DNA of 64,000 bases from an uncultured Desulfosarcina sp. (GCA_963674945.2 CAXXWQ010000004.1:1152001-1216000), one strand, 5' to 3'. Positions 47,019 to 64,000 are shown, numbered from the stretch's first letter. A program made the numbers and translations. Notes: generated by a model not told the origin, from the letters alone.

Positions 47019-47920
47019 CGGCACTCGGGTTGCGTGTGGATGCGGACACGCTAAGCGGTACCCGAAAGGGTGTGCCGACCCTGTGCCGCCTCTTCCGCCG
47101 GCATGGCATCCATGCCTCCTTTTTCTTTTCCGTGGGTCCGGACAACATGGGCCGCCACCTTTGGCGGCTGCTGCGCCCGGCGTTTCTCGTCAAGATGCTT
47201 CGTTCACGCGCCGCCAGCCTGTACGGATGGGATATCCTGCTGCGGGGGACGTTCTGGCCTGGACCGGATATCGGCTCCCATGCTGCAAAAATGATTCGTG
47301 ATGCGGCTGACGATGGCCATGAGATCGGTCTGCATGCCTGGGATCATCATGCCTGGCAGTCTCATATCGAGAAGATGGATGGGGCGGCGATCGACAAAGT
47401 GCTCCGTAACGGACTCGACCGGCTGAGCAAGATCACCGGGCGACTGCCGGAGTGCTCGGCCGCCCCGGCTTGGCGCTGTACCCCGCAGGTATTAACAAAA
47501 AAAATTGCATTCCCTTTTGTCTATAACAGCGATTGCCGCGGCCACAGTATCTTCTATCCGGTGGTAGGTGAACGGTACTTGCCCCAACCCCAGATCCCCG
47601 TCACCCTGCCCACCTATGATGAAGTGATCGACCGAAATGGGATTACGAACGCCAACTACAACGACTATCTTCTCGGCCTGATCCAACCCGGCCGCCTCAA
47701 TGTGCTGGCGATCCATGCCGAGGTGGAGGGCGGCGTCTGCGAGGGCATGTTTTCCGCGTTCTTAGACAGCGCCCTGGCCTGTGGAATCAACCCGGTTCCC
47801 TTGCGCGCACTGTTGGATACAGCCGATATCAGTCCGTCGGAGATGGTCCAAACAACCTTTGCCGGTCGTGAAGGATGGATTTCCTGCCAGCTTAAAAAAC
47901 AGAAAGCAATCCATGAATAA
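47015..47920 (+). CDS. arnD: Undecaprenyl-phosphate L-Ara4FN deformylase
   Basis: [33 protein letters not shown]. Confidence 0.95.
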
Positions 47921-48284
47921 ATATCTACCCCTGATCATTACCGGAGTCTTGCTCAACGCTGCGGCCCAGATCGTCCTCAAGCGGGGCATGCTGGCCATTG
48001 GTAAATTCTCATTCACTATAGACAACTTGATTCCCATCGGCCTGCGGGTCGGGTCGAACCCTTTTGTATTACTCGGTATCGGTTTCTATGGTATCAGTGT
48101 TGTGGTTTGGCTACTGGTGCTTTCCCGTGTTGATGTCAGCTATGCCTACCCAATGTTGAGCATCGGTTATATTGTCGCAGCATTGGCTGGAAAAGTGTTT
48201 TTCGGAGAACCAGTGGACATCGTCCGGTGGTTAGGCATTTGTACCATCTGTTTGGGTGTATACTTGATTACGCGCACGGCATAA
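47913..48284 (+). CDS. SMR/EamA-type flippase subunit (ArnE/ArnF-like)
   Basis: 4 TM; WLLVLSRVDVSYAYPMLS; directly follows arnD. Confidence 0.85.
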   Translation: MNKYLPLIITGVLLNAAAQIVLKRGMLAIGKFSFTIDNLIPIGLRVGSNPFVLLGIGFYGISVVVWLLVLSRVDVSYAYPMLSIGYIVAALAGKVFFGEPVDIVRWLGICTICLGVYLITRTA

Positions 48285-48315
48285 TTCTTATCATTAAGGA
48301 GCTAATGCCTCCATT

Positions 48316-49161
48316 GTGTATTCGGGCAAAAAGGAGCAAATCCTGTTGGAAAACACTGTATGTGTTCACAGTCAGGTTTCATGGCGGTTTGCCTGTTGGA
48401 TCGCTTTTGCCCTTTTCCTCATCTTCCCCATGCCCTGTGGTGCGGAGGGTAAAACCACCGTCGAAGCCTTTCGGCCGGGTGAACGCCTGACATTTTCCCT
48501 CAAATGGACCATCGTTCCAGCGGGTGAGGCCGTACTGGAGGTTCTTCCAAGGGAATCGGTGGCCGATTACAGTGATGCTCACCACTTCGTTCTAACGGCA
48601 CGATCCAGTGCATTTATCGATTCCATTTACAAGGTTAGGGAGCGTATCGAGTCCTGGGCTGATTCCGACATGTACCGATCGGTGAGATACCGAAAAAAAC
48701 AGATTGAAGGGGGGACAAAGCGGGATATCAACATTGTTTTCGACTGGCAGAAGATGACCGCCCAATACAGCAACTATGGAAAGATGCAGGAACCGATCCC
48801 CATTTCCGAGGGCACCCTAGATCCGCTTTCTGTATTTTATTGGGTTCGAGCCGCTACACTGGTAGCGGGCAGCCACGTTCAGCGGTTGGTGACCGATGGG
48901 AAAGAACAGGTATTGGGCGTGGCCCATGTGATTCGAAATGAACGGATAAAGGTACCTGCCGGAACCTTCGATACGGTTCTCATTGAACCGGATCTTTCCC
49001 ATGTTGGCGGGGTCTTCGAAAAGAGTCCGGACGCAAAAATTCAATTGTGGATTTCTGCGGATCATCGGCGATTGCCGATAAAACTCACGAGCAAGGTAAT
49101 CATTGGCAGTTTCACTGGAGAGTTGGTCGAGATGGTCGGGGTGGTACCTCTATCAAAGTGA
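48316..49161 (+). CDS. DUF3108 family exported protein
   Basis: FRPGERLTF.L.W..VPAG, DPLS.FY, IKVPAGTFDT, LWIS.D...LP. Confidence 0.8.
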   Translation: MYSGKKEQILLENTVCVHSQVSWRFACWIAFALFLIFPMPCGAEGKTTVEAFRPGERLTFSLKWTIVPAGEAVLEVLPRESVADYSDAHHFVLTARSSAFIDSIYKVRERIESWADSDMYRSVRYRKKQIEGGTKRDINIVFDWQKMTAQYSNYGKMQEPIPISEGTLDPLSVFYWVRAATLVAGSHVQRLVTDGKEQVLGVAHVIRNERIKVPAGTFDTVLIEPDLSHVGGVFEKSPDAKIQLWISADHRRLPIKLTSKVIIGSFTGELVEMVGVVPLSK

Positions 49162-49454
49162 TCTTTTATTCAATGGTCCCATATCGGCCGAGCACTATTG
49201 CCAATCAGTGCTCAGTTCCTAATCAAGGTTGTCAACTCAAGACTATTTTCAGTATCCCCAATGAAAATTTTCGGTTGGCGAATCGAGATTGGATCTATTG
49301 AAAAATCTGGTGCAAGATAGATCGTATGAACCGAATTTCAGGTTTTTGCGGTACCGGACAAAAAAACACTTGGTTATGCAGGCAAGGTTTCATAAAATCA
49401 GACCACTGGCAACCTATACGTGATCACTTTGAATTTCTGACGGTGCATTAGAAA

Positions 49455-50354
49455 ATGGTAAATGATACGGAAAATCAGAAACAATCCGTGTCCCTGGTAT
49501 TGGGCAGTGGAGGTGCGCGGGGGCTGGCACACATCGGTATTATCCGATGGTTGCAGGAGAATAACTATAACATCCAGTCGGTGGCGGGCTCCTCCATGGG
49601 GGCAGTGGTGGGTGGCATTTTTGCGGCAGGGAAGCTGAGTATTTACGAGCAGTGGGTCAAGAAGTTGAGCAAAGCTGATGTACTGCTATTGCTTGACTTT
49701 TCCTTCAGCAAGTCTGGTTTGTTTAAGGGCGATCGGATTATCGAACAGCTCAAGGAGTTAATTGGTGAATGCAATATTGAAGATTTGCCCATATCATTTA
49801 CAGCCGTAGCAACAGACATCGTAGCCGGCAAGGAGGTCTGGCTCAGCCATGGGCCATTGTTCGATGCCATCCGGGCGTCTTTCGCCATACCTACCCTGTT
49901 TACACCTTATCATTACCGTGGTCGCCGGCTAGTGGACGGTGGCCTGATCGATCCCATACCCATTGCGCCAACACTCAAGGATTTAACCGATCTAACCATT
50001 GCAGTGAATTTAAATGGCACCGTACAACATCAACCGGGAGGCAGTGGCGACGATGAAATCGAAAAAAGCCAAGAGAACCACTACAGGAATCCTATCAGAA
50101 AACTCATCAAGGAACATTCTTCACGAACAAAAAGCAAAGACGATGAATGGGGCTTTTTCGATGTGATTCACCACTCTCTGGAGACCATGCAAAGCACTAT
50201 CTCACGTTTAAAACTGGCGGCCTACTCCCCGGATGTGATCATCGATATTCCCAACAATGCCTGCGGTCCCTTTGAGTTCTATAGGGCCACGGAGATGATC
50301 GAATTAGGCCGTACCATGGCTCAGAAAGCGCTGGGGGGCAGATCAACGAATTAG
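49455..50354 (+). CDS. Patatin-like phospholipase (RssA-like)
   Basis: GSGGARG, GSSMG nucleophile, DGG. Confidence 0.93.
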   Translation: MVNDTENQKQSVSLVLGSGGARGLAHIGIIRWLQENNYNIQSVAGSSMGAVVGGIFAAGKLSIYEQWVKKLSKADVLLLLDFSFSKSGLFKGDRIIEQLKELIGECNIEDLPISFTAVATDIVAGKEVWLSHGPLFDAIRASFAIPTLFTPYHYRGRRLVDGGLIDPIPIAPTLKDLTDLTIAVNLNGTVQHQPGGSGDDEIEKSQENHYRNPIRKLIKEHSSRTKSKDDEWGFFDVIHHSLETMQSTISRLKLAAYSPDVIIDIPNNACGPFEFYRATEMIELGRTMAQKALGGRSTN

Positions 50355-50560
50355 TCCTTTCAGCCACTGTTATCTGCTCGTTTGCGGCAGCCATATGGGT
50401 ACTTGTTTGACCCCAACCGAAAGATTTCTTACAATCGGCCTACCTACGAATACGCGACGAGTTTTTTTTGTACAGGCAATCACATGTTTTTTTAAGGTCG
50501 CCAAAAATGTACGGCATCTTGCAATTCTGAAGATTTCACAGCAAAAAAAACATTGCTGAA

Positions 50561-51190
50561 TTAAAGGGCCATGGCCCATTTGAAAACGTTGTCCAGAAAC
50601 TTCTGGGTCTTCTTGACCACGCCGTATCCGGCATGGACCTCCGGGTCCAGGGTGGTCGCCAGAATCCGGCCTTTGAAATTTCTTGAATCCAAATAGATGA
50701 TATCACCGTCGTCCCCGTATCTCAGAAGCACTTCGGCATTGGCAGGGGCCTTGAACATGCCGTGAAAATGCCATTGCAGGTCATCGATGGTCAGGTTCTC
50801 AAACAAGGGATGCTCGGGCTTCAGTATCCGATAGGGATCCGTGACCAGTTGCCCTTTGTCCCATATACATTCCTTTGTGCCGTCCTCCTTGTATACAAAG
50901 TCCGGATACCGGTCCTCCCACTGACAGAGGGGAAGCCAGGGCCTGGTAACCTCTCCGAATGAAATCAGCAAGTTGCCCTGATTCAGAAATTCCTTGATCA
51001 TGGGTTTTGTCTGAAGCAAGACCTCCTGGTTGGATTCACGGGGAACAATCAGAACATCAAATGCCAAGATGTCCGTTGCCGGGAAATCACAGGCGTGAAT
51101 CACATGGTTTATCCATTTACCGTATTTATCGGATGTAAATAGATCATGCTGCCATTGGGAACCTGAATAAAATACACCGATCTCAGCCAT
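50561..51190 (-). CDS. Hypothetical protein, class I GATase-like fold (paralog 2)
   Basis: FDVLIVP...EFLNQGNLLISFGE, HPLFENL..DDL.WHFHG, ATTLDP..H; paralogous to 51183-51830. Confidence 0.7.
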   Translation of the reverse strand: MAEIGVFYSGSQWQHDLFTSDKYGKWINHVIHACDFPATDILAFDVLIVPRESNQEVLLQTKPMIKEFLNQGNLLISFGEVTRPWLPLCQWEDRYPDFVYKEDGTKECIWDKGQLVTDPYRILKPEHPLFENLTIDDLQWHFHGMFKAPANAEVLLRYGDDGDIIYLDSRNFKGRILATTLDPEVHAGYGVVKKTQKFLDNVFKWAMAL

Positions 51191-51830
51191 TTGTTTTCCC
51201 CTTTTTGATTTTTATGGATTCCTCTTTGGCCCATCGTAAGATATTATTCAGGAGGACGTCCGCACCCTTTATCAAATGATAGGAGTGGCAGATGGCATCC
51301 AGTTGGCTGGCGGCCAGAATGACGCCCTTTGTGGAGTGCCGGTCGATATACATGACCGGATCTCCCAACATGTTGGTGACCAGAATCTCGGCCCCTTCGG
51401 GCGCAATGAAATGGCCGTGACAACACCATCCTGTCGCCCCCTTATGCCAGTGAAGGTCATCCGGTTTCAGATTATCCAGAATGACCGGATGCCTGTGATG
51501 GATCGTTAACGGCTCGTCATCCTCAGGTTTTACCCCGTCCCATGTGCAGGCGGGCAGCCACTTGTTTGTCACCTCCCCGAAGGAGATGACGATTTTCCCC
51601 GAATCCAGATACGCGGCAATTTTATCGCGTACCCGGTACAAGATCTCCTGATCCGTGCCCCTGGGCAGGATCAGCACGTCATAGACGAAAAGATTGGTTT
51701 CAGGCAGGGTGCAAACCGGCAGTATCTCCAGTCGCTTCCTGAATTTTTCCCGGTCCAGTACGCCATGCTGGTAACTTAAGCCAGAGTAAACAGCGGCCAT
51801 CCTGACTTCGGCCGGATCCATAGCATTCAT
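51183..51830 (-). CDS. Hypothetical protein, class I GATase-like fold (paralog 1)
   Basis: YDVLILP...AYLDSGKIVISFGE, DDLHWH...WCCHGHF, SQLDAICH. Confidence 0.7.
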   Translation of the reverse strand: MNAMDPAEVRMAAVYSGLSYQHGVLDREKFRKRLEILPVCTLPETNLFVYDVLILPRGTDQEILYRVRDKIAAYLDSGKIVISFGEVTNKWLPACTWDGVKPEDDEPLTIHHRHPVILDNLKPDDLHWHKGATGWCCHGHFIAPEGAEILVTNMLGDPVMYIDRHSTKGVILAASQLDAICHSYHLIKGADVLLNNILRWAKEESIKIKKGKTNG

Positions 51831-51917
51831 TTACGTATCTCCCTTTTATCTTGGTGGAGCGGCATCTTATCATTTACTGATCCAACGCTCATATTCGTGC
51901 TGTATTTGCCAGCCCGG

Positions 51918-52712
51918 TTAACTGTTTCTCAGCGGAACGACTGTCCTGCCATCCTGGCCGTCTTGCTCAAACGAGAGAATTCTGACATTCATCTCAAATA
52001 CATTTTTCATATTCTCTTCTGTAATCACGGATGCCGGACATCCGGTCACAACGGTTTTGCCTTTTCCCATTAACAGGGCCTTATGGGAAACGGACAGGGC
52101 ATGGTCCGGAAAATGGGTGGTCATGATGGAAGCGATGTTTTTCTCCCTGGACAGCTTTTCGAGTACATCGAGAATGACCATCTGTTTGTTGAAATCCAGG
52201 TGTGAAGTGGGTTCATCAAGCAACAGCACCATGGGCTGTGCGGCCAGTGCCCGGGCGATGAGGACAAGCTGGGCCTCTCCGCCGCTCAGGTGGGGATACG
52301 GTCTATCCACCAGATGCCCGATACACAAGGTTTCAATGGCCTCCCGGGCGATTTTCTCGTCCCTGGCCGAGGGGGAAGAAAACAATCCCATATAGGGCGC
52401 TCTTCCCATGAGAACCATTTCAAATACGGTATAGGGAAAGGTCAAATCGCTGGTCTGCGCCACGTAGCCCACTTTTTTACCGATATCCATCTTTTTCAAG
52501 GTCTCCAGATTCCTGCCCCCGATCCGCACCTGCCCCTGCCTGAGACAATGCAACCCGTTGATGCATTTGAGCAGGGTGGTTTTACCGGATCCATTGGGGC
52601 CGAGAATGCTGAAAATTTCACCTTGGGCCACTGAAAAACCGATCTCCCGAAACACATATTCGCCGCCATCATATCCGAAAGCCGCATTTTCCACCTCTAT
52701 GATCATGTCCAT
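51918..52712 (-). CDS. Metal-chelate/cobalamin ABC importer ATP-binding subunit (FecE/BtuD-like)
   Basis: GPNGSGKTT, LSGGE, LDEPTSHLD, TTHFPD. Confidence 0.93.
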   Translation of the reverse strand: MDMIIEVENAAFGYDGGEYVFREIGFSVAQGEIFSILGPNGSGKTTLLKCINGLHCLRQGQVRIGGRNLETLKKMDIGKKVGYVAQTSDLTFPYTVFEMVLMGRAPYMGLFSSPSARDEKIAREAIETLCIGHLVDRPYPHLSGGEAQLVLIARALAAQPMVLLLDEPTSHLDFNKQMVILDVLEKLSREKNIASIMTTHFPDHALSVSHKALLMGKGKTVVTGCPASVITEENMKNVFEMNVRILSFEQDGQDGRTVVPLRNS

Positions 52713-53719
52713 CGACCTCCTGTTTTTCGTAATAACACGGCAAAAAACGGTGCCCCGATAATAGCGGTGAGGATACTCAGGGGAATCTCCGCGGAAGTCG
52801 CGGCCCGGGCCAGGTCATCGATGATGAGCAAGGAAAAAGCCCCGATGGAAACACAGGCCGGCATCAAGGCCTTGTGGTTGGGACCCACCAGCATTCTGCC
52901 GATATGGGGAATAACCAGCCCGACCCAGCCCACGATGCCGCACAGGGAAACGGCTGCGGCCGTTATCACGGTGGCCGCCGTAATAATGATCCACCGAAGC
53001 CACCGAGTATTGATGCCCAGGGCCTGAGCTTCTTCCTCGCCCAAGGACAGGATGTTGATCTTCCATCGCAACAAAAGAAGTAAGACGCTGCCGATCAGAA
53101 TGGGCGGCCCCCCCCACAAAAGGTCCTTGTAAGAACTCCCGGCCATGCTCCCCATGAGCCAGTAGACGATGGTGGGCAGTTGTTCCTCCGGATCGGCCAC
53201 GTATTTCGTGAGCCCGATAAGGGCCGTAAAAAAGGCTCCCACGATCACGCCGGCAAGCACCAGCATGAGGAGGGATGTCCCTGTCTTGAGCCGGCTGATC
53301 AAGCATGCCAGCACCACGGCCAGAATACCAAAGGCAAAGGCGAACAATTGAATGGCAATGGCCTCTCCGGAGGTCAGGATGCCGATACAGGCCCCGAATC
53401 CGGCCCCAGCGGAGACGCCGAGGATGTCGGGGCTTACCAGGGGATTTCGAAAAAGGCCCTGAAATGCGGCACCGGCCACTGCCAATCCCGATCCCACCAG
53501 AACGGCCAGTAGCAAGCGCGGCAACCGGATTTGAAGCACCACGGATTCCTCTATGGCGGTCCAGGTGGCGTCAACCGGTAAGAAGCGCGAAATAAAAATG
53601 TCAAACCCCGTACCCGGGGAGATGCTATATCTTCCCATGTATACGGAAAGCCCAAAGGCCAGGATCGGCAATATAATCAGCACCGGCGTGGTGATCCGTA
53701 TTCGCTCTTTTTTCAACAT
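52703..53719 (-). CDS. FecCD/BtuC family ABC importer permease
   Basis: IRLPR, QGLFRNPLVSPDILGVSAGA, LGEEEAQALG, GWVGLVIPH. Confidence 0.95.
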   Translation of the reverse strand: MLKKERIRITTPVLIILPILAFGLSVYMGRYSISPGTGFDIFISRFLPVDATWTAIEESVVLQIRLPRLLLAVLVGSGLAVAGAAFQGLFRNPLVSPDILGVSAGAGFGACIGILTSGEAIAIQLFAFAFGILAVVLACLISRLKTGTSLLMLVLAGVIVGAFFTALIGLTKYVADPEEQLPTIVYWLMGSMAGSSYKDLLWGGPPILIGSVLLLLLRWKINILSLGEEEAQALGINTRWLRWIIITAATVITAAAVSLCGIVGWVGLVIPHIGRMLVGPNHKALMPACVSIGAFSLLIIDDLARAATSAEIPLSILTAIIGAPFFAVLLRKTGGRWT

Positions 53720-53774
53720 ATCGCTTCCTTTTCAAAATCGGCCCTGCGCATAGAAAAGGTCTTCTTTCACACAT

Positions 53775-54941
53775 TCACATTCGGGATCCTTTGGCAGCTG
53801 AACGCACGGGATGAAGAATCCGTTCCACCTGCTCATCGGAAAGTTGGTAATGATAGAATCGAGAATAAAATTTCTTAATCTCTTCTTCTATGGTGAAGTC
53901 ACGAAACAATTCCGGATGATTTTTCTGGGCCATCCATTTCAGCATGAGCGGCGCATCCGGATTCGGAGGATACCATCCGTATATCCCCAGGGGAATCTTA
54001 TAGACCTTTCCCTTTTTCACCGCGTTCACGATGCTCCAGTTCTGTCCTTCCACGGTGTTTTGTAACAGCGCCTCGGGCAGTGTGTCGCTGAAATTACTGA
54101 TGTAGATGATGTCCGGATTCCACTGGTAGATCTGCTCCATATTCACGGAAACCCGGCCCGACACGCACGCCGCCATATTGACCGCGCCGGTGGACGTGAT
54201 CCAGAAATGGCCATAGTGACCGGTTCCGGGGATATTGATTTCCTCTGCACTGTGGTAGTAGAGAATAAGCACCTTAGGCCGTCGTTTCTGGGGCACGCCC
54301 CGCAGCCTGGATGCGATCATCTCCATGGTCGCAAGATTGTATGCGATCAGTTCGGCCGCCTTTTCTTCCTCTTGAAAAATGCTGCCCACCAGGGTGATCC
54401 ATGTATTCAGGGTTTCCATGGCGTTTCCGCCGCTGATGGTGTGAACGGCCACGGCGGGGATGTCGATGGCGTCAAACTGCTGCCGCTGCCTGGGATACAA
54501 TCCCCAGAAGATAAAGAGGTCCGGCTCCAGTTTGAGGGCCTCTTCGATGTTCAGGTCCTTGCCCTTGACAAAGCCCGCAGCCATGTTCATCAGTTCCGGT
54601 GCCAGGACACCCAGCATGGAGATTCTTGCCTTGCTTTTGACCGCCGGGTGTATGCCCACGATTTTTTTGCATGAGCCGGTCACCGCATAACAGACCGCCG
54701 GAAGCGGAAAGGAGGTAACAATCACCCGATCGATGGATTCGGGGAGCCGGACCCGTCTGTTGTCCTGATCCGTTACCGTCCGCCAGGTACGATCCTGTGC
54801 CGCCGGTATGTCGGACACGGCAGCCCCTGACGGAAACGCACCTTCCGTGTTGTCACATCCGGTCATCACCATAAAGGTCAGGACCGGAATCAGCATCAGG
54901 GCATTACCAAGGGTACGTTTTGTTGCATACGTCCTTTTCAT
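53775..54941 (-). CDS. Periplasmic binding lipoprotein (FecB/BtuF class)
   Basis: Lipobox MTGC, VTDQDNRRV.LP, NIEEALKLEPD, VNMEQIYQWNPDII, AVKKGKVY. Confidence 0.92.
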   Translation of the reverse strand: MKRTYATKRTLGNALMLIPVLTFMVMTGCDNTEGAFPSGAAVSDIPAAQDRTWRTVTDQDNRRVRLPESIDRVIVTSFPLPAVCYAVTGSCKKIVGIHPAVKSKARISMLGVLAPELMNMAAGFVKGKDLNIEEALKLEPDLFIFWGLYPRQRQQFDAIDIPAVAVHTISGGNAMETLNTWITLVGSIFQEEEKAAELIAYNLATMEMIASRLRGVPQKRRPKVLILYYHSAEEINIPGTGHYGHFWITSTGAVNMAACVSGRVSVNMEQIYQWNPDIIYISNFSDTLPEALLQNTVEGQNWSIVNAVKKGKVYKIPLGIYGWYPPNPDAPLMLKWMAQKNHPELFRDFTIEEEIKKFYSRFYHYQLSDEQVERILHPVRSAAKGSRM

Positions 54942-56140
54942 CCTCTTATCCCGTTTGCACAGGTCCTTACCTTTTCCTGAAAATACCATGCCCCTTCCGG
55001 GCCGATGAAACTCGGGCCGTCATCCCAGTACAGACGGCTGGACAGGGCGATATGGGGAAAGGCGATGAATTGCCCCTTTCCGGACGAAGCCGTTAGACCC
55101 CGATATAAGGGATCTCCCACAATGACGGAATACGGATGCCTTTGTGTCAATGTAATCAGATCATCTTCCCCCTCAAGACGAATATCACATTCCTCTGAAA
55201 GCCATGGATCCATGTCAAAAAAAGAGGCCACGGTCACCCTGGAAAACCCCAAATCCAGACGCAGGCAGTTGCGGACGGCATTTGCCGTCACCTGTTCGCC
55301 CAGCACGAGCACTTCTCGTGTATCCAGTACGGGAAAAGAAGACGGTGGCTGTCCCATGCCCGACGTCTTGTCCAGATCAAGTAAGAAACGAACGTCGTTG
55401 ATAAAATGTTCAGTGGGTTTGCTTCCGATGGGTAAGCCCACCAGAAAGGGAATACCCTGTTCGCGCTCAAGGAAACGAGCGGCTGCAAGACCCGTACGGG
55501 AAACAACGATATTGAGCCTGGCTTCGGCCGACGCCGCAATCTCATCGAGGGAGGAACCCATGGCCCAGCATGAAACGATTCTGCAGCCGGCATTGGTGAG
55601 AAGGGTAAAAAACCGTTCCTTGTGCAGACCGTATCCGAAATCAAGGGGGGTCAGACCGATAATATTGACACCGATCTCATGGGTCGATAGGCGCGGTTTT
55701 ACAAAGCGGCGCGCCAATTCCAAAAAGGCATCGGAGGCCCCGTGATCGTAAGTATTGAGTCCATTGGTGTCAAACACCAGGATCGGCAGTTCTGTCCGTT
55801 GAGAAAGGATATGGCCCAGAGCCCGAAAGTCCGTTCCGATCACCATGGGGGCAGGGCTGCCCACGAGGGCGATAAAGTGCGGATGGATGGTTGTAAGGGC
55901 GTTTTCGATCTTGGTGAGCAGCTTTTCATCATCCCCCACAACCGCATCGATTTCTCGCAGACCACTGCTCATGACCGCGCTGGTGCTGCCGTACCAGCGG
56001 GGCTCGTCATAGGCGGTGAAATTACCGATGCACCCGCCACCATCATGGATCACCACCAACCCGCCCAGATCGAAGAGCGCAGAACACACGCCCGAATAGT
56101 CGGGTGCAAAGGGCGGTAATATGGAGTAGAGTCCTTTCAT
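54938..56140 (-). CDS. Nitrogenase component-1-like subunit (NifK/BchB-like)
   Basis: PDYSGVCSAL...VIHDGGGC, SSGLREIDAVVGDDEKL, IGTD, ARLNIVV oxidoreductase pattern. Confidence 0.85.
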   Translation of the reverse strand: MKGLYSILPPFAPDYSGVCSALFDLGGLVVIHDGGGCIGNFTAYDEPRWYGSTSAVMSSGLREIDAVVGDDEKLLTKIENALTTIHPHFIALVGSPAPMVIGTDFRALGHILSQRTELPILVFDTNGLNTYDHGASDAFLELARRFVKPRLSTHEIGVNIIGLTPLDFGYGLHKERFFTLLTNAGCRIVSCWAMGSSLDEIAASAEARLNIVVSRTGLAAARFLEREQGIPFLVGLPIGSKPTEHFINDVRFLLDLDKTSGMGQPPSSFPVLDTREVLVLGEQVTANAVRNCLRLDLGFSRVTVASFFDMDPWLSEECDIRLEGEDDLITLTQRHPYSVIVGDPLYRGLTASSGKGQFIAFPHIALSSRLYWDDGPSFIGPEGAWYFQEKVRTCANGIRG

Positions 56141-56152
56141 TTATGATGATCC

Positions 56153-57463
56153 TTATAAAACCATGCCGGAGGCATACATCTGTTCCCGGTGATTCCGGGG
56201 ATGCTCGAGGGCATGATGCATTTCACTCAACAAAAAAGTGACCGCCTGAAACCCGAAAGGCTGTTTCTCCAGGCCCAGGGGAACGGTCACGGCATTCCGG
56301 CAAAAGTATCCGGCGTCAAATCCGATGGCCACATCCGCCGTCAACGCCTCATTGATCAGGCCAGCCATGGTCGGATGCAAGTTGGTAAAAACCTTTATTC
56401 CCAACCGTCGACGCCGGAGCCATTGAATGTGCTCCAAGTCAATATCCAGGATCTGATCCGCAATGATGTAGCGGACCCGAAAGCCGAATTCACTTAAAGC
56501 CCGGGCAAGCTCGAAAGGCGTTGCATTGGCCGTGGATCCAACGGCCATGTCCAGCGGGCCCAGGATTTTTCCATATGCCCGAATCGTGTCCAGGGCCGCT
56601 TCGCGATAAGTATGCGTATTCAGCTTCACATCCAGGGCCTGTTCCAGCAGGCCGTAATTGCGGGCAATAATGTCCGGGGTATAGGATACGGGTGCGTAAC
56701 AATAAGGCGTTCCGAGTTTTCTGTGCAGGTGTTCCACGGCCAGCCGACCGGCCGGCCGGATCAGCAGGTTATGGGCCGAACGACTCATTTGTTGAAATTC
56801 CGCCAACGTGGCACATGCCCCCACATGGCGAATGTGATTGATGCCTGCCTCTGCCATCAACGGATACAACTCACTCTCCGCATCAACAGGGACAAAATTC
56901 CCCATGACATTGACCGCCCTCTCTTGCTCAACAGGCGGTTCAAGAAAATCATACAAGGCCCGCTGGACGGTTAACAGAGGCGGTGTTTTTCCGTCCGTGG
57001 CGATGGGATCCATGTGACAGATGCGAATTGGAACGCCGTGTACCGCCTCCAAATGCCGAGCAAGCCCGTCATAGTCCGAGCCCAGCAGATCATCCAGACA
57101 GGAGGCACAGATGAGCATCGCCTTTGGCTGCGGCTGACGCATTGCCAGGATTTCACCGACGGCCAGGGGTATTTTTTCCATATGGTTCCCGGTTACGATA
57201 TCCGTTTCGGTTACGTGCAGCAGGAACAGGCGTTCCTTGAAGCCCAGTTGAAGGGCTGCAATGGCGCCGTGACGACCGCAGCCGGCCGGTGCGACCAGGA
57301 GCAGTACGGATTCGGGAACCAAAAGCCCCACCCGAACGATTCCCCATCCCCCGGCGCTTGCCGGACAGTAATGGAGGCAATCCGGCGATATCAACCGGTG
57401 CCGCTGAATCGCATCCGTATGTTCCAGTTCACTTACCGGGATGCAATAGGCCGTCATGTTCAC
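56153..57463 (-). CDS. Nitrogenase component-1-like subunit (NifD/BchN-like)
   Basis: [46 protein letters not shown]. Confidence 0.85.
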
Positions 57464-58218
57464 AAATCCCCCCGGGCTTGGGATATGCGGCGGGCGATAG
57501 CGAAAAGGGTTTGTGACACAGCGAGTTCCGGATTTCCCTGAATGACCGTTTGGTGCTGTTGCTCAAAGTACTGGATCTGACGATCCCGGGGAATGTCACC
57601 CATGATTTCCGTGTTTATCTCTTGTGCGAATCGTGTCACAATGGTTTCCTCATTTTCTACGTCGCGCCGGTTCAGAATCAGACCACGCAACCGGGCATAA
57701 TTCCGGTCGGCAAAGCTATCGATGGCCGTCTTGATGTTGTTGGCGGCAAACAGAGCCATCTTCTCCCCTGATGTTACAATAATGACCTCGTCAGCATAGC
57801 CCTCCCGCAGGGGCATGGCAAACCCGCCGCATACCACGTCGCCCAGCACATCAAATAGGACGAAATCCGGACGATAGACATCAAAGGCATGCAGATCCTC
57901 GAGTATAGTAAAGGCCGTAATAATCCCCCTGCCCGCGCAGCCGCGGCCCGGGGTGGGGCCGCCTGCTTCGACACATAGAATACCGTTAAACCCCTCAACA
58001 ACAATGTCCGAAAGAGAGGAACACGACCCGTGTTCCTGAAGAAATGCCATGACCGGCGTGACGGCCCTGCCATTTGTCAGATTAACGGTGGAGTCCGCCT
58101 TTGGATCGCAGCCGATTTGCATGACCTTAAATCCCAGCATGGAAAGTGCGGCGGACAGGGAGCCGGTAATGGTTGATTTACCGATTCCCCCTTTGCCGTA
58201 AAAAGCGATTTTTCGCAT
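57460..58218 (-). CDS. NifH-like Fe protein (ATP-dependent reductase; group IV / NflH type)
   Basis: [52 protein letters not shown]; 252 aa, short C-terminus. Confidence 0.93.
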
Positions 58219-58244
58219 GTTTCATCTCTGTTGATATTTGGGTT

Positions 58245-58275
58245 GCCCATCCATCACCCTCGGTGATGGATGGGC
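58245..58275. other. Perfect 14-bp intergenic hairpin
   Basis: GCCCATCCATCACC-CTC-GGTGATGGATGGGC between the receptor gene and the nifH-like gene. Confidence 0.8.
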
Positions 58276-58281
58276 GTGTGT

Positions 58282-60477
58282 CTAAAATCTGGACGTCAAG
58301 GAGACGGATACACACCGGCCTGGTTCCAGCAGGGGATTGGTATCGCTCCTATCATAGGATATATCTTCTGTTGTGGTCGGATTGCGGTATTTCTCGTCCA
58401 GGATGTTCTCTACTGCCATGCGCAACTCCATGTCCGGAAGACGAGAGGACAGTTTCCTGATGTCAAACCCCATATAGAGGTTCCATATGAAGTAGGCGTC
58501 GGTCTCCCGTTCCTGGGTGTCATCGATGCGGTCCTTTTCGGCCGACCATTTATTGGTGGCTTCAATGTAAAAATCCTTGCTGTCGGGCGTATAACGGACG
58601 CCCACAAGACCATTGAGGGGCGCGATATAAGGCAGTGGTGTATCGGTTTTGGTGTCCGTGCCGTGCAAGTAGGCAGCATTCATGAAGGCCTTCCAGTTTT
58701 CGTTCGCCACCCAGGAGGCGTCCAGTTCAAGGCCTTTGATGCGGGCTTCGCCCACGTTCTGTCGCTGCGTGGCGGTTGTTCCTGCGTAGATGGTGGAGTC
58801 CACGGTCTTTCTGACGATCAGGTCTTCATACTCACTCCAAAACCCCGTCAGATTGGCGGTCACGATCGGCAAGCGCAATCGTATGCCCACCTCGTGAGTC
58901 ATTCCCTTTTCCGGATCAAGGTCGGGATTGGGTTCAAAACCGGAGCTCATCTCGAATTTCTCAGTACTCGTGGGCGCGCGGTAAGTGGTGCTGGAGTTTG
59001 CCGTGAAATGCAAGATGGGGATCGGTCGGTAGATCACCCCCGCACTTCCGGTAACGGGGTAGTCGCTCGACTCGGTGGAGCCCGTGTAATTGGGGACATC
59101 GTCCTTTGCTTCGGAACGGAAATAATCCAACCGGCCGCTTGCAGAAATCGTCCACTTCTCCGACGGATCCCAGTCATCATGCACGAACAGCCCCACATTG
59201 AGCTGGGAAGAATCGATTCCGGATTTTTTTCGGGCGGAGTAAGACGTCAGATTTCCATCCGCATCATACTTGGCTACCTCTTGCTCCGAGGCGTCGCGGT
59301 CCTCATAAAAGAAATCCGTGCCGATGGTAAGGGAATTGGTGGCCCCCCATGATTGAACACCGAACAATTTGCCCCCTGTGATCAACGGGCCGTCCACATA
59401 GACGTCGGCCTTGGTCAGACTCGAGGCGGGATCATCCTTGGGGCGTTTTTTCACGATCATATGCGTATACAGATCCCTTGCATACAAACTGGCCTCGATG
59501 TGCTCAAGCCCCAGGGTCCTCTCGCCTTGGTAATGGATCTTTGCCATTTTTTCCTTGAACGGCTCCTGCCTCCGTACATTATAGGGATAACCGGGCACGG
59601 CATAGATGCCTCCTGCCTGCCCCTGTTCCACTTCCATGTATTTTGCGGACAGTTCGATTCGATGATCTTGGGCCAGGGTATATCCGAGTTTCAGATCCGT
59701 GGACCATGACTCCATGTCGCTGTTGGCAATCTCCCCATCCGGACTTTCATAATCGTCCGACTTGCTACCGGAGAGCCCTATAAGCATATCAAAACCGTTT
59801 CCCACCCCCTGAACTTCAAGGGAACCCTTTCGAAGATTGCTGGCGCTGGAATAGGATAGCGATCTTAACCGGGGGGACAGTGTAAACGGTCCGTCAATGT
59901 CGCCTTCGGCCTTTCGGGTGATGACGTTGATCAGACCGGCCATGGAGTCGGTGCCGTACATGGAGGCGGCAGGACCGCGGATGACTTCAATGCGTTCAAT
60001 GCGGCTCGGGTCAAGGGCAATATACTCAAAGGTATTGCGACCCCGAAAACGATCCCCGTCAATGAAGAGGGGAGAGCGTGAATCATTGGAGTTGAATCCC
60101 CGTAAGTTGACCTGTCCGCCCAAGGGGCCTGCCCGGGAAAAGGATATTCCCGGAATCTCATCCAGTAATTCCAATATGGTGGCGGGATTGCGGGTCTCGA
60201 TGGTCTCTTTGTCGATCACGCTGACCGGCTTTGGTGTCAAATCCACGGCCCGTTCCGTCCGTGTCGTGGTCACCACCATTTCTCCCAAATCGATGGGCGC
60301 TTTTATTTGGCTCGTTTTCTCTCCGTTTTTTTCCTCCTTTTCCAGGGTCTGTTCGATTTCCGTACTGCTCAGGGTCGTCTCATCCATTTTTTCCGCAGCC
60401 GAGGTCTGCGATTGTTCAAGAAAGACAAGGGCGATCATCAGACTCAACAAACAACTAGCTCTTCGTACACCTTTCAT
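58282..60477 (-). CDS. TonB-dependent outer-membrane receptor (heme/cobalamin/metal-chelate class)
   Basis: Signal peptide, MVVTTTRTE TonB-box region, IERIEVIRGPAASMYG plug, NPDLDPE, ENILDEKY...PGR, C-terminal Phe. Confidence 0.95.
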   Translation of the reverse strand: MKGVRRASCLLSLMIALVFLEQSQTSAAEKMDETTLSSTEIEQTLEKEEKNGEKTSQIKAPIDLGEMVVTTTRTERAVDLTPKPVSVIDKETIETRNPATILELLDEIPGISFSRAGPLGGQVNLRGFNSNDSRSPLFIDGDRFRGRNTFEYIALDPSRIERIEVIRGPAASMYGTDSMAGLINVITRKAEGDIDGPFTLSPRLRSLSYSSASNLRKGSLEVQGVGNGFDMLIGLSGSKSDDYESPDGEIANSDMESWSTDLKLGYTLAQDHRIELSAKYMEVEQGQAGGIYAVPGYPYNVRRQEPFKEKMAKIHYQGERTLGLEHIEASLYARDLYTHMIVKKRPKDDPASSLTKADVYVDGPLITGGKLFGVQSWGATNSLTIGTDFFYEDRDASEQEVAKYDADGNLTSYSARKKSGIDSSQLNVGLFVHDDWDPSEKWTISASGRLDYFRSEAKDDVPNYTGSTESSDYPVTGSAGVIYRPIPILHFTANSSTTYRAPTSTEKFEMSSGFEPNPDLDPEKGMTHEVGIRLRLPIVTANLTGFWSEYEDLIVRKTVDSTIYAGTTATQRQNVGEARIKGLELDASWVANENWKAFMNAAYLHGTDTKTDTPLPYIAPLNGLVGVRYTPDSKDFYIEATNKWSAEKDRIDDTQERETDAYFIWNLYMGFDIRKLSSRLPDMELRMAVENILDEKYRNPTTTEDISYDRSDTNPLLEPGRCVSVSLTSRF

Positions 60478-60740
60478 ACCTCAATCTTCCTCCTGATTTC
60501 GGGGCCTGCGCGAAGCCCGTGGAGTCGTGATAAAAAATGAACTGTCTTTGAAATCAACGACCCTTGTTTACTGTTGACAATACCCCCGATCCGTCTGAAA
60601 GAGGTGCGCATTGAATCCGGTCGAATTGCTTTTTTCTCTCCGGAGGATAATTCTTTCCCGGCCCGGGATTTTTCCTGTTACTGCCTCACCCGGGTCTTGT
60701 TTTGCGAATCATGATAAACTGACACCCATGCGGCATGCGC

Positions 60741-61316
60741 CTATTCTCCGCGTATTACGCCCTTTACGGCGGTAATGGTCTTTTCTGGTTTCAGAAGGCC
60801 TGCCGGCGTCAAATTCAGACCGGGGATATCCGACCCGATCATTTCAAGAAAGACGCTTTGGGCCTTAAGGGAAAAATCCTGATACCCCGGGCTGTATCGC
60901 CGGGTGGTACTGCTTTTCTCCCGCTCACATTCCCGAACAATTTTTTTGTCCAGGTTCCTCATCTCCCCTTCCACGAGATAGCTTCCCATGCGGTCCAGAA
61001 TGTACCCGGAGAACGTCTCGTTTTGTGCAAAATAATCCCGGGAACGTCGTTCCAGGTCATCCCCCAGGCTCACGGCCATGAGCCAAACCTGATGGGCCTC
61101 GGCCAGCAGCCGGGTAATGGCCTTGTTTTGCCGGGCGTGTGAATGAAAAAGGAGAAAAAATTCATTCACGGGAAGCAGATGGCGCCAACGCCGCACATCA
61201 AGCAACTGATGGGCCTCGTTCCAGAGTCGTGCGGTCTGTTCCATGGCGAGAGAGTCCTTTTCAATCTGAAGATATTTCAGGACTTTTTCCGTGAGTCGCG
61301 GTATCTCCCCTGCCAT
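60741..61316 (-). CDS. Stand-alone B12-dependent methionine synthase activation-domain-like protein
   Basis: MAVSLG..LE, YILDRMGS..VE, RRYSPGYQDFSL..Q, L.PEKTITAV.G. Confidence 0.85.
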   Translation of the reverse strand: MAGEIPRLTEKVLKYLQIEKDSLAMEQTARLWNEAHQLLDVRRWRHLLPVNEFFLLFHSHARQNKAITRLLAEAHQVWLMAVSLGDDLERRSRDYFAQNETFSGYILDRMGSYLVEGEMRNLDKKIVRECEREKSSTTRRYSPGYQDFSLKAQSVFLEMIGSDIPGLNLTPAGLLKPEKTITAVKGVIRGE

Positions 61317-61325
61317 GACGCCCTC

Positions 61326-62924
61326 TTACCCGTTGGTTTTTCCCAAGATGTCCTTGACCAGTTTTACGGCCCCCACGGCATCGCGGGCATACCCCTGCGT
61401 TCCGATGGAAGCGGCGATCTGCGGGTTGACCGCTGCCCCGCCCACAATAATGGAAACCGGACGGACATCGGACCGGTTGAAGTTGTTGACAATCTCGACC
61501 AATTGCTTGCGGGCGCCGGTGATAAAAGCGGATAATCCTACCACAGGTGCCTCATAAGTGTTGACGGCCGCAAGAAAGTCCCCGGCCGGGACATTGACGC
61601 CCAGGTCAAGCACCTTTACACCATTGGTTTCCAGAATGATCCTGACCAGATTCTTGCCGATCTCGTGGAAATCCCCCTTGACCGTTCCGAGAATCACCTG
61701 GGGCGGCCGGTCTCCCGCGGCGCCCAGGTGCGGTTCCAATGTGCGGAATCCCTGGTAAAAGGCATCCACCATCAAAAGAATCTCCGGCAGGAAGGACTGC
61801 CGTGACTCATAACAGGCACTGCCTTTGCGCACCGCCCGCATCAGGGCTGAATTGACGATCATGAGAGGGTCTGTCTCTTCTTTCAGGGACGTTGAGACCA
61901 ACGCCGACACGGTTTCGCGTTTTCCCCGGTGGACCGCGTCGGACAGCCGGGAAAGGGTTTGGGCATGGGGCGTAAGTTCGGACAAGGCCCTTTTGCCCGT
62001 CTCAATGAAACGCACTACATTTGCAATGGGGGTTCCCGGCGGAAGGGCACAACCGGTGCTCAAGATAAAATTATCCTTTACGCCCATGGTGGCCACCAGG
62101 TCCTTCGTACTTGCCGCCACCTCTTCGGGCGGGGCCAGTTCGATGATCTCCACTGGATCGATATTGCCGACAATGCCCACCGATTTCGGAACAATGTCTT
62201 CATAGGCCAGAAGGTCCATACACTGATCAAAACTGATGGCCCGGACTCCGGTCTTGACCATGTCCTTGAGGATCTGTGAGGTGTCCCCACAGATATGAAG
62301 GACCGTGGGTTCCGTTGGATGGATGTCATAAAGACGGGCCAAAAATTCTCCTGCAAACCGCCAGAAGCTGTCGGGCGGCAGCAGGGCCGCCAGGGGGTCT
62401 GAAATCCAGAAGACCTCGGCCCCCGCGTCCAGAAGATAGCGGCCGTAATCCCGGGCGCAGGCCAGGCATTTTTCCATCAGATCAAGGACTTCTCCCGGCC
62501 TTTCCACAATTCCCCGAAGAAGTTCCTGTTCCCCGGCCAATTGCCCGGCCACGGTGAAGGGGCCGTACACCATGGTGGACAGGGTCCTGTCCGGAAACTC
62601 CTTTGCCATACGCTTCAGGACCTGGGCATTGACCGCCATCCTGGGAACCGTTGCAGGTGGGACAACATTAACGGAACTGCCGGGCATCTCCACGGACGGC
62701 ATGGCATCGGGTGAAAAACACACCTTCGCACCCATGGCCTCCGCCTGAATGGCGATATCGCTGAAGTAGAACAGGATATCGGCATCCACCTGCTGATAAT
62801 ACTTTTTTACGGCCTCAAATTTGATATCGGCATTCCAGGAAATGTCGTCGATCCCGGCCTCAACCATTTGAAAAGAGGGGAGCGCATTGATGGGAAACAC
62901 CTTGTTCCGTAAGGAATGTTCCAT
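61326..62924 (-). CDS. Fused MtaA/URO-D-family methyltransferase and corrinoid-binding protein (CmuA-like architecture)
   Basis: QAEAMGA, GPFTVA, LHICG and STGC Zn-ligand motifs, GNIDP; C-terminal cap plus GDFHEIGKNLV (DxHxxG), VGLSA, VGGA. Confidence 0.9.
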   Translation of the reverse strand: MEHSLRNKVFPINALPSFQMVEAGIDDISWNADIKFEAVKKYYQQVDADILFYFSDIAIQAEAMGAKVCFSPDAMPSVEMPGSSVNVVPPATVPRMAVNAQVLKRMAKEFPDRTLSTMVYGPFTVAGQLAGEQELLRGIVERPGEVLDLMEKCLACARDYGRYLLDAGAEVFWISDPLAALLPPDSFWRFAGEFLARLYDIHPTEPTVLHICGDTSQILKDMVKTGVRAISFDQCMDLLAYEDIVPKSVGIVGNIDPVEIIELAPPEEVAASTKDLVATMGVKDNFILSTGCALPPGTPIANVVRFIETGKRALSELTPHAQTLSRLSDAVHRGKRETVSALVSTSLKEETDPLMIVNSALMRAVRKGSACYESRQSFLPEILLMVDAFYQGFRTLEPHLGAAGDRPPQVILGTVKGDFHEIGKNLVRIILETNGVKVLDLGVNVPAGDFLAAVNTYEAPVVGLSAFITGARKQLVEIVNNFNRSDVRPVSIIVGGAAVNPQIAASIGTQGYARDAVGAVKLVKDILGKTNG

Positions 62925-63224
62925 TTTTATCGATCCTTTTCGATGATGGCGAAGAGGCGGCGACGTCAGTCCCCCTTCGGTGTGACAGCCATTGTCTATG
63001 GACACGGCACATCGCCAGGGCACCATCACACCTGCGGCATCACCTTCCGAATCTTTAATGGAACGAGGTGGACCGGAACTTAATTAAAAGTGTTTAAAAG
63101 GATAAACTCGTTGAGGATATCAATTTCTCAGTCTGCCCTCCGTCTATCAACCCGGATAGCTCTTCGCATGTATTATCATGTAAAACCGAAAAATCGATAC
63201 ATCTTGGAAAACCTCTGAAAGGTC

Positions 63225-63277
63225 AAATCATATAATATGATTTTGGCACCATTAGTCCCGAAACGGATTCATGTCAA
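63225..63277 (-). promoter_or_regulatory. Candidate sigma70 promoter with downstream palindromic operator
   Basis: Minus-strand TTGACA-N17-TAATGG followed by the palindrome AAATCATAT-A-ATATGATTT (63225-63243). Confidence 0.55.
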
Positions 63278-63580
63278 GAAAAAATTTTACGCACTCATTC
63301 GGGGAAAATACCCATATGGTAAGATCAAAAACCTTCTGCATAGTTCGTTATATAGGATGTAGCTTTATCAGGCTGCTTTTTTTTGAAGAATTGAATTGCG
63401 AGAATTTGGTGAGAAGAAAAGTTTTTTCAACAGAATGCCAAACTGAGATATCATGCAATTGCCTGCTCCAAAAATCTTGAAGCACGCCAACATATTGAAG
63501 CCGGAGGAGATATCAACAATGATGGAATTACATACCATGCGGATTGAACAGCAACGCAGCGACAACTGATAAGACCGCTT

Positions 63581-64000
63581 CTATTGTTTCCGATTCTTCT
63601 GAATGGCACGACGCACTTTTTCCCGCTGGTCCGGCGTAAGCTGTTGCCAGCGCCGGTACTGACGCATGAGTTTTTGTCTTTGTGCCGGCGTTAGATTTTT
63701 TAACCTTTTGTTCAGCTGCCGTATACGCTCTTTCTCCTTTACCGGCAATCGTTGCCAGCGACTGTATTTCTCTCTTACGGCCGCTTTTTGCTTTTCATTC
63801 AAATTCGTAAAACGCTTGTAATTTTCCCTGATGCGACTGCGCTCGTCATCCGGAAGGGCTTTAAATGCCTTGACCTTCTCATGAAGTGCATTCCGTTGAT
63901 CCTCACTCAAAGACTCCCATTTCGAAAACCGTTGTCGTAGCTGTTCTTTTTCCTCCGGACTGAGCTTCTGCCAGCGTGAAGCGGCGTCCTCTTCGGATGA
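63581..64000 (-). CDS. DUF3106-like 18-aa repeat protein, 5'-truncated
   Basis: Frame open to the window end; repeats W/F-x-x-L-[SP]-x-E-[EQ]-[RK] with 18-residue period. Confidence 0.8.
   Translation of the reverse strand, partial: SSEEDAASRWQKLSPEEKEQLRQRFSKWESLSEDQRNALHEKVKAFKALPDDERSRIRENYKRFTNLNEKQKAAVREKYSRWQRLPVKEKERIRQLNKRLKNLTPAQRQKLMRQYRRWQQLTPDQREKVRRAIQKNRKQ

Follow-up and report, generated by a model that had tools for sequence, protein, structure and literature searches.

A nitrogenase-like reductase encoded within a chelate-import cassette of a sulfate-reducing bacterium, and its possible role in iron release

Uncharacterised NifHEN-like genes of the so-called 'red' clades, which show a 2+1-cysteine pattern and lie beside ABC transporters (Mlab_1040/1039 and Dhaf_1539/1540), were described by Dos Santos et al. 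(2012; PMC3464626), who proposed that metal transport is coupled to cofactor assembly. The link between such genes and ABC transporters has therefore been in print since 2012. Here we analyse a gene cluster at positions 50561-62924 of a 64,000-nucleotide stretch of DNA (the window, G000:C4:1152001-1216000, whose numbering is used throughout) from the 7.08-Mb genome of an uncultured Desulfosarcina sp. The host is a sulfate reducer, with dsrA above the cut-off, in which three nitrogenase-like genes are set within metal-chelate importer genes. With a slight lean in favour of this reading, we consider the nine genes from the TonB receptor to the gene called U2 to be a chelate-import cassette with a built-in nitrogenase-fold reductase, which would strip an imported ferric chelate of its iron by reduction at the expense of ATP.

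The 'red' clades resemble the present locus in having cysteines at α-C88, α-C154 and β-C95, no FeMo-cofactor ligands, a co-located ABC transporter and anaerobic hosts; in the part of the source available they are described without a named metal, an operator, a TonB receptor or the genes U1 and U2, the comparison being with that description and not with sequences. DPOR (BchLNB), COR (BchXYZ) and CfbCD likewise combine an Fe protein with a component 1 predicted to hold a single [4Fe-4S] cluster and have no NifB requirement, but they form separate clades whose family cut-offs the window proteins fall far below, they are biosynthetic and not importer-linked, and CfbD has no K subunit. IsrBHDK (PMC11423573) and MarBHDK are nitrogenase-like reductases that scavenge a nutrient, as proposed here, and ISR needs an ABC importer encoded nearby; both, however, serve sulfur limitation and need a radical S-adenosylmethionine (SAM) or NifB-like partner, and the ISR importer is of the SsuABC type. 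MarD keeps its P-cluster and L-cluster ligands, unlike the NifD-like protein of the window, which is 18-19% identical to solved MarD (pairwise comparison only, E 1e-6). The ferric-siderophore reductases FhuF and SIP would perform the same proposed job, presumably by reductive release of iron from an imported chelate, but have unrelated folds and no ATP coupling. The importer HI1470-1472 (MolABC) provides the nearest solved permease and the second-nearest solved binding protein to those of the window, and we know of no reductase that acts with it. Literature searches, for which subscription papers were mostly outside reach, returned no functional study of the clade of the NifD-like protein; the word 'siderophore' does not occur in the accessible text of PMC13474568, and the available content of PMC5511505 and PMC9431491 is unrelated to the clade.

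The interval holds 11 open reading frames (ORFs), all on the minus strand, in the order given by the initial annotation: methyltransferase-corrinoid fusion, activation-domain protein, TonB receptor, nifH-like, nifD-like and nifK-like genes, binding protein, permease, ATPase and two GATase-fold paralogues. The gene identities were confirmed by Pfam (URO-D/MtaA with B12-binding, TonB receptor, Fer4_NifH, two Oxidored_nitro, Peripla_BP_2, FecCD and ABC ATPase), and, in agreement with the same source, no nifB/E/N, bch or cfb gene was found in Pfam scans of the window ORFs. The nine genes of the cassette are as follows.

58282..60477, minus strand: TonB-dependent outer-membrane receptor, 731 aa (Pfam)
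57460..58218, minus strand: NifH-like Fe protein (H), 252 aa, with a P-loop and cluster cysteines C94 and C130 (PF00142, 9e-88)
56153..57463, minus strand: NifD-like subunit (D), 436 aa, with invariant C62 and C122 and variable C33 (alignment and model)
54938..56140, minus strand: NifK-like subunit (K), 400 aa, with one cluster cysteine, C37, and conserved D14 and D45-E-P-R48 (alignment and model with D)
53775..54941, minus strand: class III substrate-binding protein, 388 aa, whose predicted signal peptide ends near Cys29 (PF01497)
52703..53719, minus strand: FecCD-family permease, 338 aa (PF01032)
51918..52712, minus strand: ABC ATPase, 264 aa (Pfam and NCBIfam scans)
51183..51830, minus strand: U1, GATase/ThuA-fold protein, 215 aa (33% identical to U2)
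50561..51190, minus strand: U2, GATase/ThuA-fold protein, 209 aa, with invariant E80, H141, H143, D182 and H186 (model and fold search)

In transcription order, the receptor is followed after 63 nt by H, H overlaps D by 4 nt, D and K are 12 nt apart, and the stop of K overlaps the ATG of the binding protein (at 54941) by 4 nt, as originally observed. A 55-nt gap precedes the permease, which overlaps the ATPase by 10 nt; U1 follows after 87 nt and overlaps U2 by 8 nt. Upstream, the methyltransferase and activation genes are separated by 9 nt, and a gap of 263 nt, the largest within the cluster, splits this pair from the other nine genes. The co-orientation of all 11 genes thus stands, but their reading as one operon is weakened by this gap and by the duplication of 60959-62930 elsewhere in the genome. 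The feature splits in two: a widespread, uncharacterised reductase/importer cassette, for whose iron role the comparative evidence is good, and an accessory methyltransferase module.

The conservation of the cassette was assessed by a scan of the Genome Taxonomy Database (GTDB) with the D alignment, which confirmed 108 relatives; the locus counts refer to the best 80 of these 108, gene presence was scored by tblastn (E 1e-5), and many loci end at contig ends. H was present in 76 loci, K in 77, the binding protein in 61, the permease in 62 and the ATPase in 65, and the TonB receptor in seven (all from outer-membrane lineages), U1 in four and U2 in four. A FecCD permease lay within 6 kb in 40 of the 43 loci with at least 5 kb of flank on each side (36 co-oriented) and in 22 of the 37 shorter loci. 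The exceptions were L022, with an Opp-type importer after K, L050, with CbiMQ after K, and L061, with a shortened D. The identities of D and of the permease covary (Spearman 0.61 over 72 loci, among which kin are not independent), 48 metagenome loci, partly from the same organisms, carry the same cassette, and L032 and L105 reproduce the gene order of the window from the receptor through the ATPase. The conserved unit is therefore the nifH/D/K-like genes with the FecCD-type importer, not all 11 genes. Where conserved linkage of four modules had been anticipated, the reductase was found with the importer, but the methyltransferase in only 3 of the 80 loci and the activation domain in none.

A D-profile search returned 468 clusters (50% identity) at E 1e-30 or better, sister clades included. 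The hosts of the clade are clostridia, spirochaetes, synergistetes, chloroflexi, proteobacteria and methanogens, and cultured carriers include Syntrophomonas wolfei subsp. methylbutyratica, Petroclostridium sp. X23, Rhodoplanes elegans, Treponema saccharophilum and Methanospirillum stamsii. Recurrent neighbours were FeoB (eight loci), a DtxR-family repressor (eight), DUF3793 (six), flavodoxin (five), DUF2325, Crp-type regulators and SAM methyltransferases. Closer to the host, D of the cassette was not found in the 40 relatives searched (24 of them congeners), and 400 genomes of the phylum yielded four D matches, all in a hydrogenase-linked sister clade. The cassette is therefore a sporadic unit in this lineage, where it was probably acquired. 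No relative of D was found on viral contigs.

The residues of the reductase were then compared across the family. Across 105 sequences of H, the P-loop and both cluster cysteines are retained, as is the arginine that follows the first cysteine; the window protein scores under the cut-offs for nifH, CfbC (300 vs 402 bits) and BchL (196 vs 345). C62 and C122 are invariant among 106 D sequences, 58 of which also have C33; C37 occurs in 91 and D14 in 88 of 95 K sequences. D-C62, D-C122 and K-C37 align with α-C88, α-C154 and β-C95, and the α-C62 column is not conserved. The columns of the FeMo-cofactor ligands C275/H442/Q191/H195 are not conserved either, the aligned positions being R, a gap, K and L. 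With two aligned cysteines in D (plus the variable C33) and one in K, against six (3+3) in groups I-III, the proteins do not carry a P-cluster set.

The model of D showed the nitrogenase component-1 fold (pLDDT, a predicted local accuracy score, of 92), with 13-19% identity to solved NifD/K, MarD and BchB. The D-K complex model scored 0.90 against 0.00 for the best of three controls, passing a mark reached by 116 of 157 solved pairs and 2 of 215 mismatched pairs, although this pass may stem from likeness to solved nitrogenase-fold complexes; the runs agreed in at least 90% of contacts, with partner pLDDT of at least 86. C33, C62, C122 and K-C37 all lie within the modelled interface. NifB was below the cut-off in all five carrier genomes tested, and four carriers have no other component-1 gene; the genome of the window, which was not searched for nifB, has a true nif cluster on contig C2 that contains its only other component-1 genes. 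Because of the 2+1 cysteines, the missing FeMo ligands, the lack of NifB and the interfacial position of the cysteines, D/K likely holds a single interfacial [4Fe-4S] cluster with a variable fourth ligand and no carbide (FeMo-type) cofactor, as far as alignment and model can predict. Longer D homologues proved to be natural D-K fusions or apparent chimeras and gave no clue to the substrate.

Phylogenetic analysis with FastTree (94 sequences, 371 columns), based on 25 hand-picked loci and references labelled by NCBIfam, placed the D family in a clade of its own (support 0.99), apart from Nif, Anf, NifE/N, CfbD and BchN/B/Y/Z; the tree included no verified MarD, IsrD, NfaD or group VI sequence, and its deep nodes are weak. 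The position outside characterised clades was thus borne out for those in the tree. Comparison with individual groups pointed the same way. The P-cluster cysteines and the L-cluster Cys/His pair of MAR (group IV-C) are absent, as judged from NifD-equivalent columns, since MarD was not in the alignment. The importer is of FecCD type and not that of ISR (group IV-F), and a radical SAM gene adjoined one locus (L049) among the 111 neighbours scanned. CfbCD (group IV-B) differs from the two distinct subunits found here, which score 25 vs 268 bits for TIGR03282 and have no cfb neighbours, and DPOR/COR (group V) is a separate clade with scores of 66 vs 490 bits (BchB) and 26 vs 420 bits (BchN). The cysteine pattern of the 'red' clades of Dos Santos et al. 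(2012), confined to α-88, α-154 and β-95, is present. Of the features given for group VI nitrogen-fixation-like (NFL) proteins, the locus shows at most four cluster cysteines, no FeMo ligands and no NifB, but not the radical-SAM-rich neighbourhood (bioRxiv 10.1101/765248). The central claim of the initial annotation, a nitrogenase-fold reductase that does not fix N2 and is tightly and widely linked to a chelate importer, is upheld by these residues and by the permease counts above.

The D family is sister to the hydrogenase-linked clade (joint support 1.0), members of which lie inside [FeFe]-hydrogenase operons at L150:754-15062, L151, L152 and L153 (G175, G111, G077 and G285). These operons contain hydA, a small subunit, an aspartase-like gene, hydF, hydE and mostly hypE- and hypF/hypD-like genes; HydG is below the cut-off in all four genomes, and the sister K lacks even C37. 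The sister clade may replace HydG in making the iron-CO-CN unit. Nitrogenase-like genes linked to hydrogenase maturation genes are also reported from other organisms in PMC3464626. Four termite-type spirochaete loci of the D family (L084:9242-10123 and three others) carry a [FeFe]-hydrogenase C-terminal-like gene between K and the permease, and two U2 homologues (P0147 and P0151) have a NifX/NifB-like domain. All of these observations would suit a reductase that acts as a maturase and couples metal import to the assembly of a cofactor, such as that of hydrogenases, following the idea of Dos Santos et al. (2012). We nevertheless consider such a maturase rather unlikely for the window cassette: no target enzyme is conserved beside the 80 loci, and the co-regulation with feoAB and flavodoxin set out below indicates iron shortage and not cofactor building.

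The affinities of the transport proteins bear on what is imported. The permease is nearest to HI1471 among solved structures (3e-78), ahead of heme permeases (1e-47 to 1e-48) and BtuC (1e-38), and the binding protein to 4OVK (4e-69), followed by HI1472 (3e-30) and the nickel-named 4LS3/4INO (4e-15), and it is not near heme-binding proteins. With HI1471 the nearest permease and HI1472 the second-nearest binding protein, the importer belongs with the HI1470-72 branch of type II importers. BtuB and BtuFCD do not describe it (133 vs 600 and 233 vs 461 bits). The receptor scored 264 bits for the heme model TIGR01785 (cut-off 317), 161 for siderophore and 133 for B12 (cut-off 600); its nearest solved match is PhuR, and it shares 39% identity with a Methylosinus receptor encoded next to an importer with U1/U2. 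Heme receptors have a His between their FRAP and NPNL motifs, and no His was found at residues 503-515, between the FRAP-like and NPNL-like motifs of the window receptor.

Heme or another tetrapyrrole could thus be the imported iron source, its ring being reduced or opened anaerobically by the reductase in the manner of DPOR, COR and CfbCD. The heme model is the best receptor family and PhuR the best solved match, the cluster-only architecture is that of the tetrapyrrole reductases, and iron regulation would fit equally well. Set against this are the receptor score below the heme cut-off, the missing His, a permease far nearer to HI1471 than to HmuU, a binding protein unlike heme-binding proteins and the lack of a recurring heme-utilisation gene among the scanned neighbours, and we regard a tetrapyrrole substrate as unlikely. 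A small non-heme iron chelate is preferred and heme comes second, a ranking drawn from the likeness of permease and binding protein to HI1471, 4OVK and HI1472 and from the receptor score and loop.

The paralogues U1 and U2 complete the cassette. Their GATase fold was verified for U2, which was matched to class I glutamine amidotransferase-like proteins (3RHT, Z 15.7, root-mean-square deviation 3.2, 186 aligned; Foldseek 2GK3, E 2e-8), but no invariant or nearly invariant Cys was found in 35 U2 sequences, so the catalytic Cys of class I glutamine amidotransferases is missing. In Aliivibrio, Rhizobium and Methylosinus, the U1/U2 pair comes after homologous importers, and the stretch shown holds no reductase; in Haloferax and Chelatococcus it comes after importers of other kinds (altogether 5 of the 34 plasmid records inspected). 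The Aliivibrio pVSAL320 importer with U1/U2 is reported to be iron-dependent and probably Fur-regulated (PMC2627896). In aerobes the U1/U2 family occurs behind iron importers, sometimes fused and often with an FmdE-like third gene (L227:9001-10290; L228:3861-9591; L230:5480-12477). It was found in none of 400 other genomes of the phylum and in one of 107 in the family of G455.

A link to iron emerged from the upstream regions. A de novo gapped-palindrome search of 85 non-redundant cassette upstream regions (from 96), with 124 control regions from the same loci, identified GTTAG-N6-CTAAC in 36 of the 85 cassettes and 4 of the 124 controls. In 1.235 Mb there were 71 such sites: 47 lie before H, D or the binding-protein gene, seven before feoA/feoB, and others before DUF2325, DUF3793, flavodoxin and a DtxR-family gene. 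In 12 regions from three of five genomes, the site stands before feoAB (twice), an FTR1 permease, a second FecCD importer, paired ABC half-transporters and ZIP, MatE and AraC genes. In G449, nine of 11 sites fall in one 52-kb stretch that ends at the cassette, an iron-type transporter island (G449:C1:4961555-5013275). The occurrence of the palindrome before cassettes as well as feoAB, FTR1 and flavodoxin therefore connects the family with iron. Neither the operator nor the regulon that it marks may have been described before; the palindrome resembles a single-dimer DtxR operator, which makes a DtxR-family protein a candidate regulator only.

The shared operator before feoAB, FTR1 and flavodoxin also speaks against a cassette that imports and unloads another metal, be it nickel, cobalt, molybdenum/tungsten or manganese, and the release of Ni(II), Co(II) or Mn(II) needs no reduction. 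Such a metal would agree with the nickel-named 4LS3/4INO and HI1472 among the nearest solved binding proteins, with the manganese sensors of the DtxR family and with the NicO, CooC-like, CobW and CbiMQ genes beside some loci; on balance we find it very improbable.

An importer-linked cassette that is common in anaerobes and often stands behind an operator of iron-uptake genes makes iron release a likelier role than N2 fixation, and the unloading of a metallophore, a candidate from the outset, became the favoured reading through the iron-type operator and the importer linkage. From gene content, linkage, residues and the operator of relatives we infer the substrate, chemistry and regulation of this copy as follows. 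Uptake of a small iron chelate to the cytoplasm would fall to the receptor and FecCD-type importer, whose gene families are clear. The H dimer, which retains the cluster ligands, would hydrolyse ATP and pass on electrons from its [4Fe-4S] cluster, by analogy with all characterised members. D/K, with its predicted single [4Fe-4S] cluster (D-C62, D-C122, K-C37 and a variable fourth ligand), would set Fe(II) free by reducing either Fe(III) or the ligand. U1/U2 may bind or hydrolyse the spent ligand, an optional step given their presence in four of the 80 loci.

Several observations weigh against ferric-chelate reduction. No GTTAG-N6-CTAAC site occurs in the window, nor does a good Fur box stand ahead of its receptor or methyltransferase gene; both signals are likewise missing from the closest relatives L032 and L105, so that iron control of the window copy is an extrapolation. 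The delta-proteobacterial Fur box of PMC545781 (up to three mismatches) was not found before the receptor and gave one weak match far upstream of the methyltransferase. Fur-like boxes (at least 15/19) are not enriched (6 of 85 cassettes vs 7 of 124 controls). Some palindromes precede unrelated genes (chemotaxis, RF3), and genome-wide counts of 10, 11, 3, 7 and 2, against 3, 11, 5, 2 and 2 for the reversed pattern, are in excess in only two of five genomes, which makes the raw counts weak on their own. DtxR-family repressors sense Mn as well as Fe (PMC11672702). The solved relatives of the importer include the nickel-named proteins and HI1470-72, and HI1472 is a molybdate-binding protein. The reductase is paired with Opp/NicO or CbiMQ transporters at L022, L048 and L050. 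The characterised [4Fe-4S]-only members (DPOR, COR, CfbCD) all reduce tetrapyrroles (PMC13474568). Finally, a sulfate reducer in a sulfidic, reducing habitat has no obvious need for ferric reduction.

The remaining two genes and the elements around them are listed below.

61326..62924, minus strand: MtaA/CmuA-type methyltransferase, 532 aa, with a fused corrinoid-binding domain (Pfam URO-D and B12-binding)
60741..61316, minus strand: 191-aa protein that resembles the methionine-synthase activation domain and partners the methyltransferase (Atlas features)
60959..62930, minus strand: duplicated 1,972-bp segment with the methyltransferase and the 5' part of the activation gene (blastn 99.6%, contig depth)
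60478..60740, minus strand: 263-nt gap in which a separate transcript of nine genes may start, with no recognised operator
63225..63243, no strand assigned: palindrome upstream of the methyltransferase, the sole match of its pattern in the genome

The methyltransferase shows H-x-C (210-212), Cys 292 and D-x-H-x-x-G (418-423), the Zn-binding (H-x-C...C) and corrinoid-binding motifs of MtaA/CmuA methyltransferases, and scored 133 bits for TIGR01463, under the cut-off of 235. It shares with MtaA/MtaC, CmuA and MtsD/F/H a Zn-thiol methyltransferase fold and a His-ligated corrinoid domain, but falls under all family cut-offs and is not conserved with the cassette. The activation-domain label is based only on Atlas features (0.97 to PF02965 clusters, in which 19-48% of members carry PF02965), with a recognition score of 2250, slightly below the mark of 2300. 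The palindrome at 63225-63243 matches none of the consensus sites among those in the accessible part of PMC545781.

A second copy of the 1,972-bp segment was found at G000:C4:60868-62839 (99.6% identical by blastn) and holds the first 119 codons of the activation gene; contig depth is twofold over 60959-62906, matching the duplication. In the surrounding stretch (G000:C4:60161-62839), this copy begins directly behind a peroxiredoxin-like gene, and its activation gene ends after 120 codons. A single public contig spans 48909-60988 (its sample is possibly the source sample, X1 and X2 being one sample), runs X3 and X4 gave no more than patchy coverage of the stretch, and the upstream flanks could not be assigned to either copy from the contigs. 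No RNA run was among the sequencing runs listed as containing it, which says nothing about expression. Orthologues of the fusion (METHYLTRANSFERASE), 49-59% identical to it, were detected in 5 of the 400 phylum genomes and in 1 of 30 congeners. No D-like gene was found in any of these six genomes, where the orthologues adjoin NMT1-type or branched-chain importers and in two cases the activation gene. The activation gene follows the methyltransferase in L167 and L169 too. The pair probably reached its place ahead of the cassette as a mobile module in its own right.

A methyltransferase does recur beside such genes. In L020, which also has U1, U2, H, D and K, the gene immediately before that of the binding protein is of MtaA type and co-oriented; L032 has a 52% fusion orthologue 1 kb downstream on the opposite strand, and L038 a weaker one 4.5 kb off. 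In L233 a cluster of corrinoid methyltransferase genes encloses the importer, U1 and U2, and the 20 kb retrieved contain no reductase. As only 3 of the 80 loci have it, the link is optional, and the methyltransferase is likely an accessory neighbour outside the conserved cassette.

These recurrences, seen near the importer in L020, L032 and L233, are what speaks for all 11 genes forming one pathway that imports, reduces and demethylates a corrinoid, an F430-like compound or a methylated chelate through the corrinoid methyltransferase. Another nitrogenase-like clade, at L221:1837-17987 (G448), has H fused to a D-like subunit and adjoins cobN, cbiZ, chelatase-like AAA genes and a FecCD importer, but it is a different clade and a better candidate for corrinoid salvage than the window cassette. 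Against the 11-gene pathway stand the scarcity of both genes in the 80 loci, fusion orthologues in genomes without a D-like gene beside other importers, the duplication of the methyltransferase without the cassette, the 263-nt gap and receptor and BtuC scores far under the B12 cut-offs. In addition, Rfam gave no match over the gathering score in 48000-64000, hence none to a cobalamin riboswitch, and of four regular-expression matches to cobalamin riboswitch elements in the loci none precedes a cassette. We hold little belief in such a pathway. The methyltransferase as a pathway part, as first suggested, is not supported, and the iron-type regulon of the relatives, the importer affinities and the lack of a B12 riboswitch speak against salvage of cobamides or F430.

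Further observations concern other clades and the surroundings. At L223:3305-10776 (G450), the genes of a third nitrogenase-like clade come after a Fur-like box (16/19) and a two-permease importer of iron chelates. In 50300-63600, searches for promoters and terminators were uninformative (15 sigma-70 sites vs 10.2 expected; 15 terminators vs 14.6 expected). An arn-type lipid A modification cluster occupies window positions 42842-48284 (plus strand) and 38278-40029 (minus strand); its arnA-like gene lies in three ORFs of different frames (formyltransferase, epimerase part and C-terminal part), being either broken or affected by a sequencing error. A DUF3108 gene (window 48332-49162) has a 79% identical paralogue at G000:C4:1485337-1486167.

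The reductase/importer cassette matters more than the 11-gene arrangement of the window. Our wider proposal is tentative, and we doubt it slightly more than we trust it: this widespread nitrogenase-fold clade would consist of ATP-driven ferric-chelate reductases that use low-potential electrons to strip chelates too stable for ordinary reductases, other importer-linked clades (hydroxamate-type, corrinoid) may strip different chelates of their metal, and the sister clade may take the place of HydG. Genomic context, together with the shared operator, suggests a function that can be tested in a large clade. If true, metal acquisition would be added to the roles of the nitrogenase superfamily, a class of false nifH signals would be explained, and a route by which anaerobes gain access to chelated iron would be revealed.

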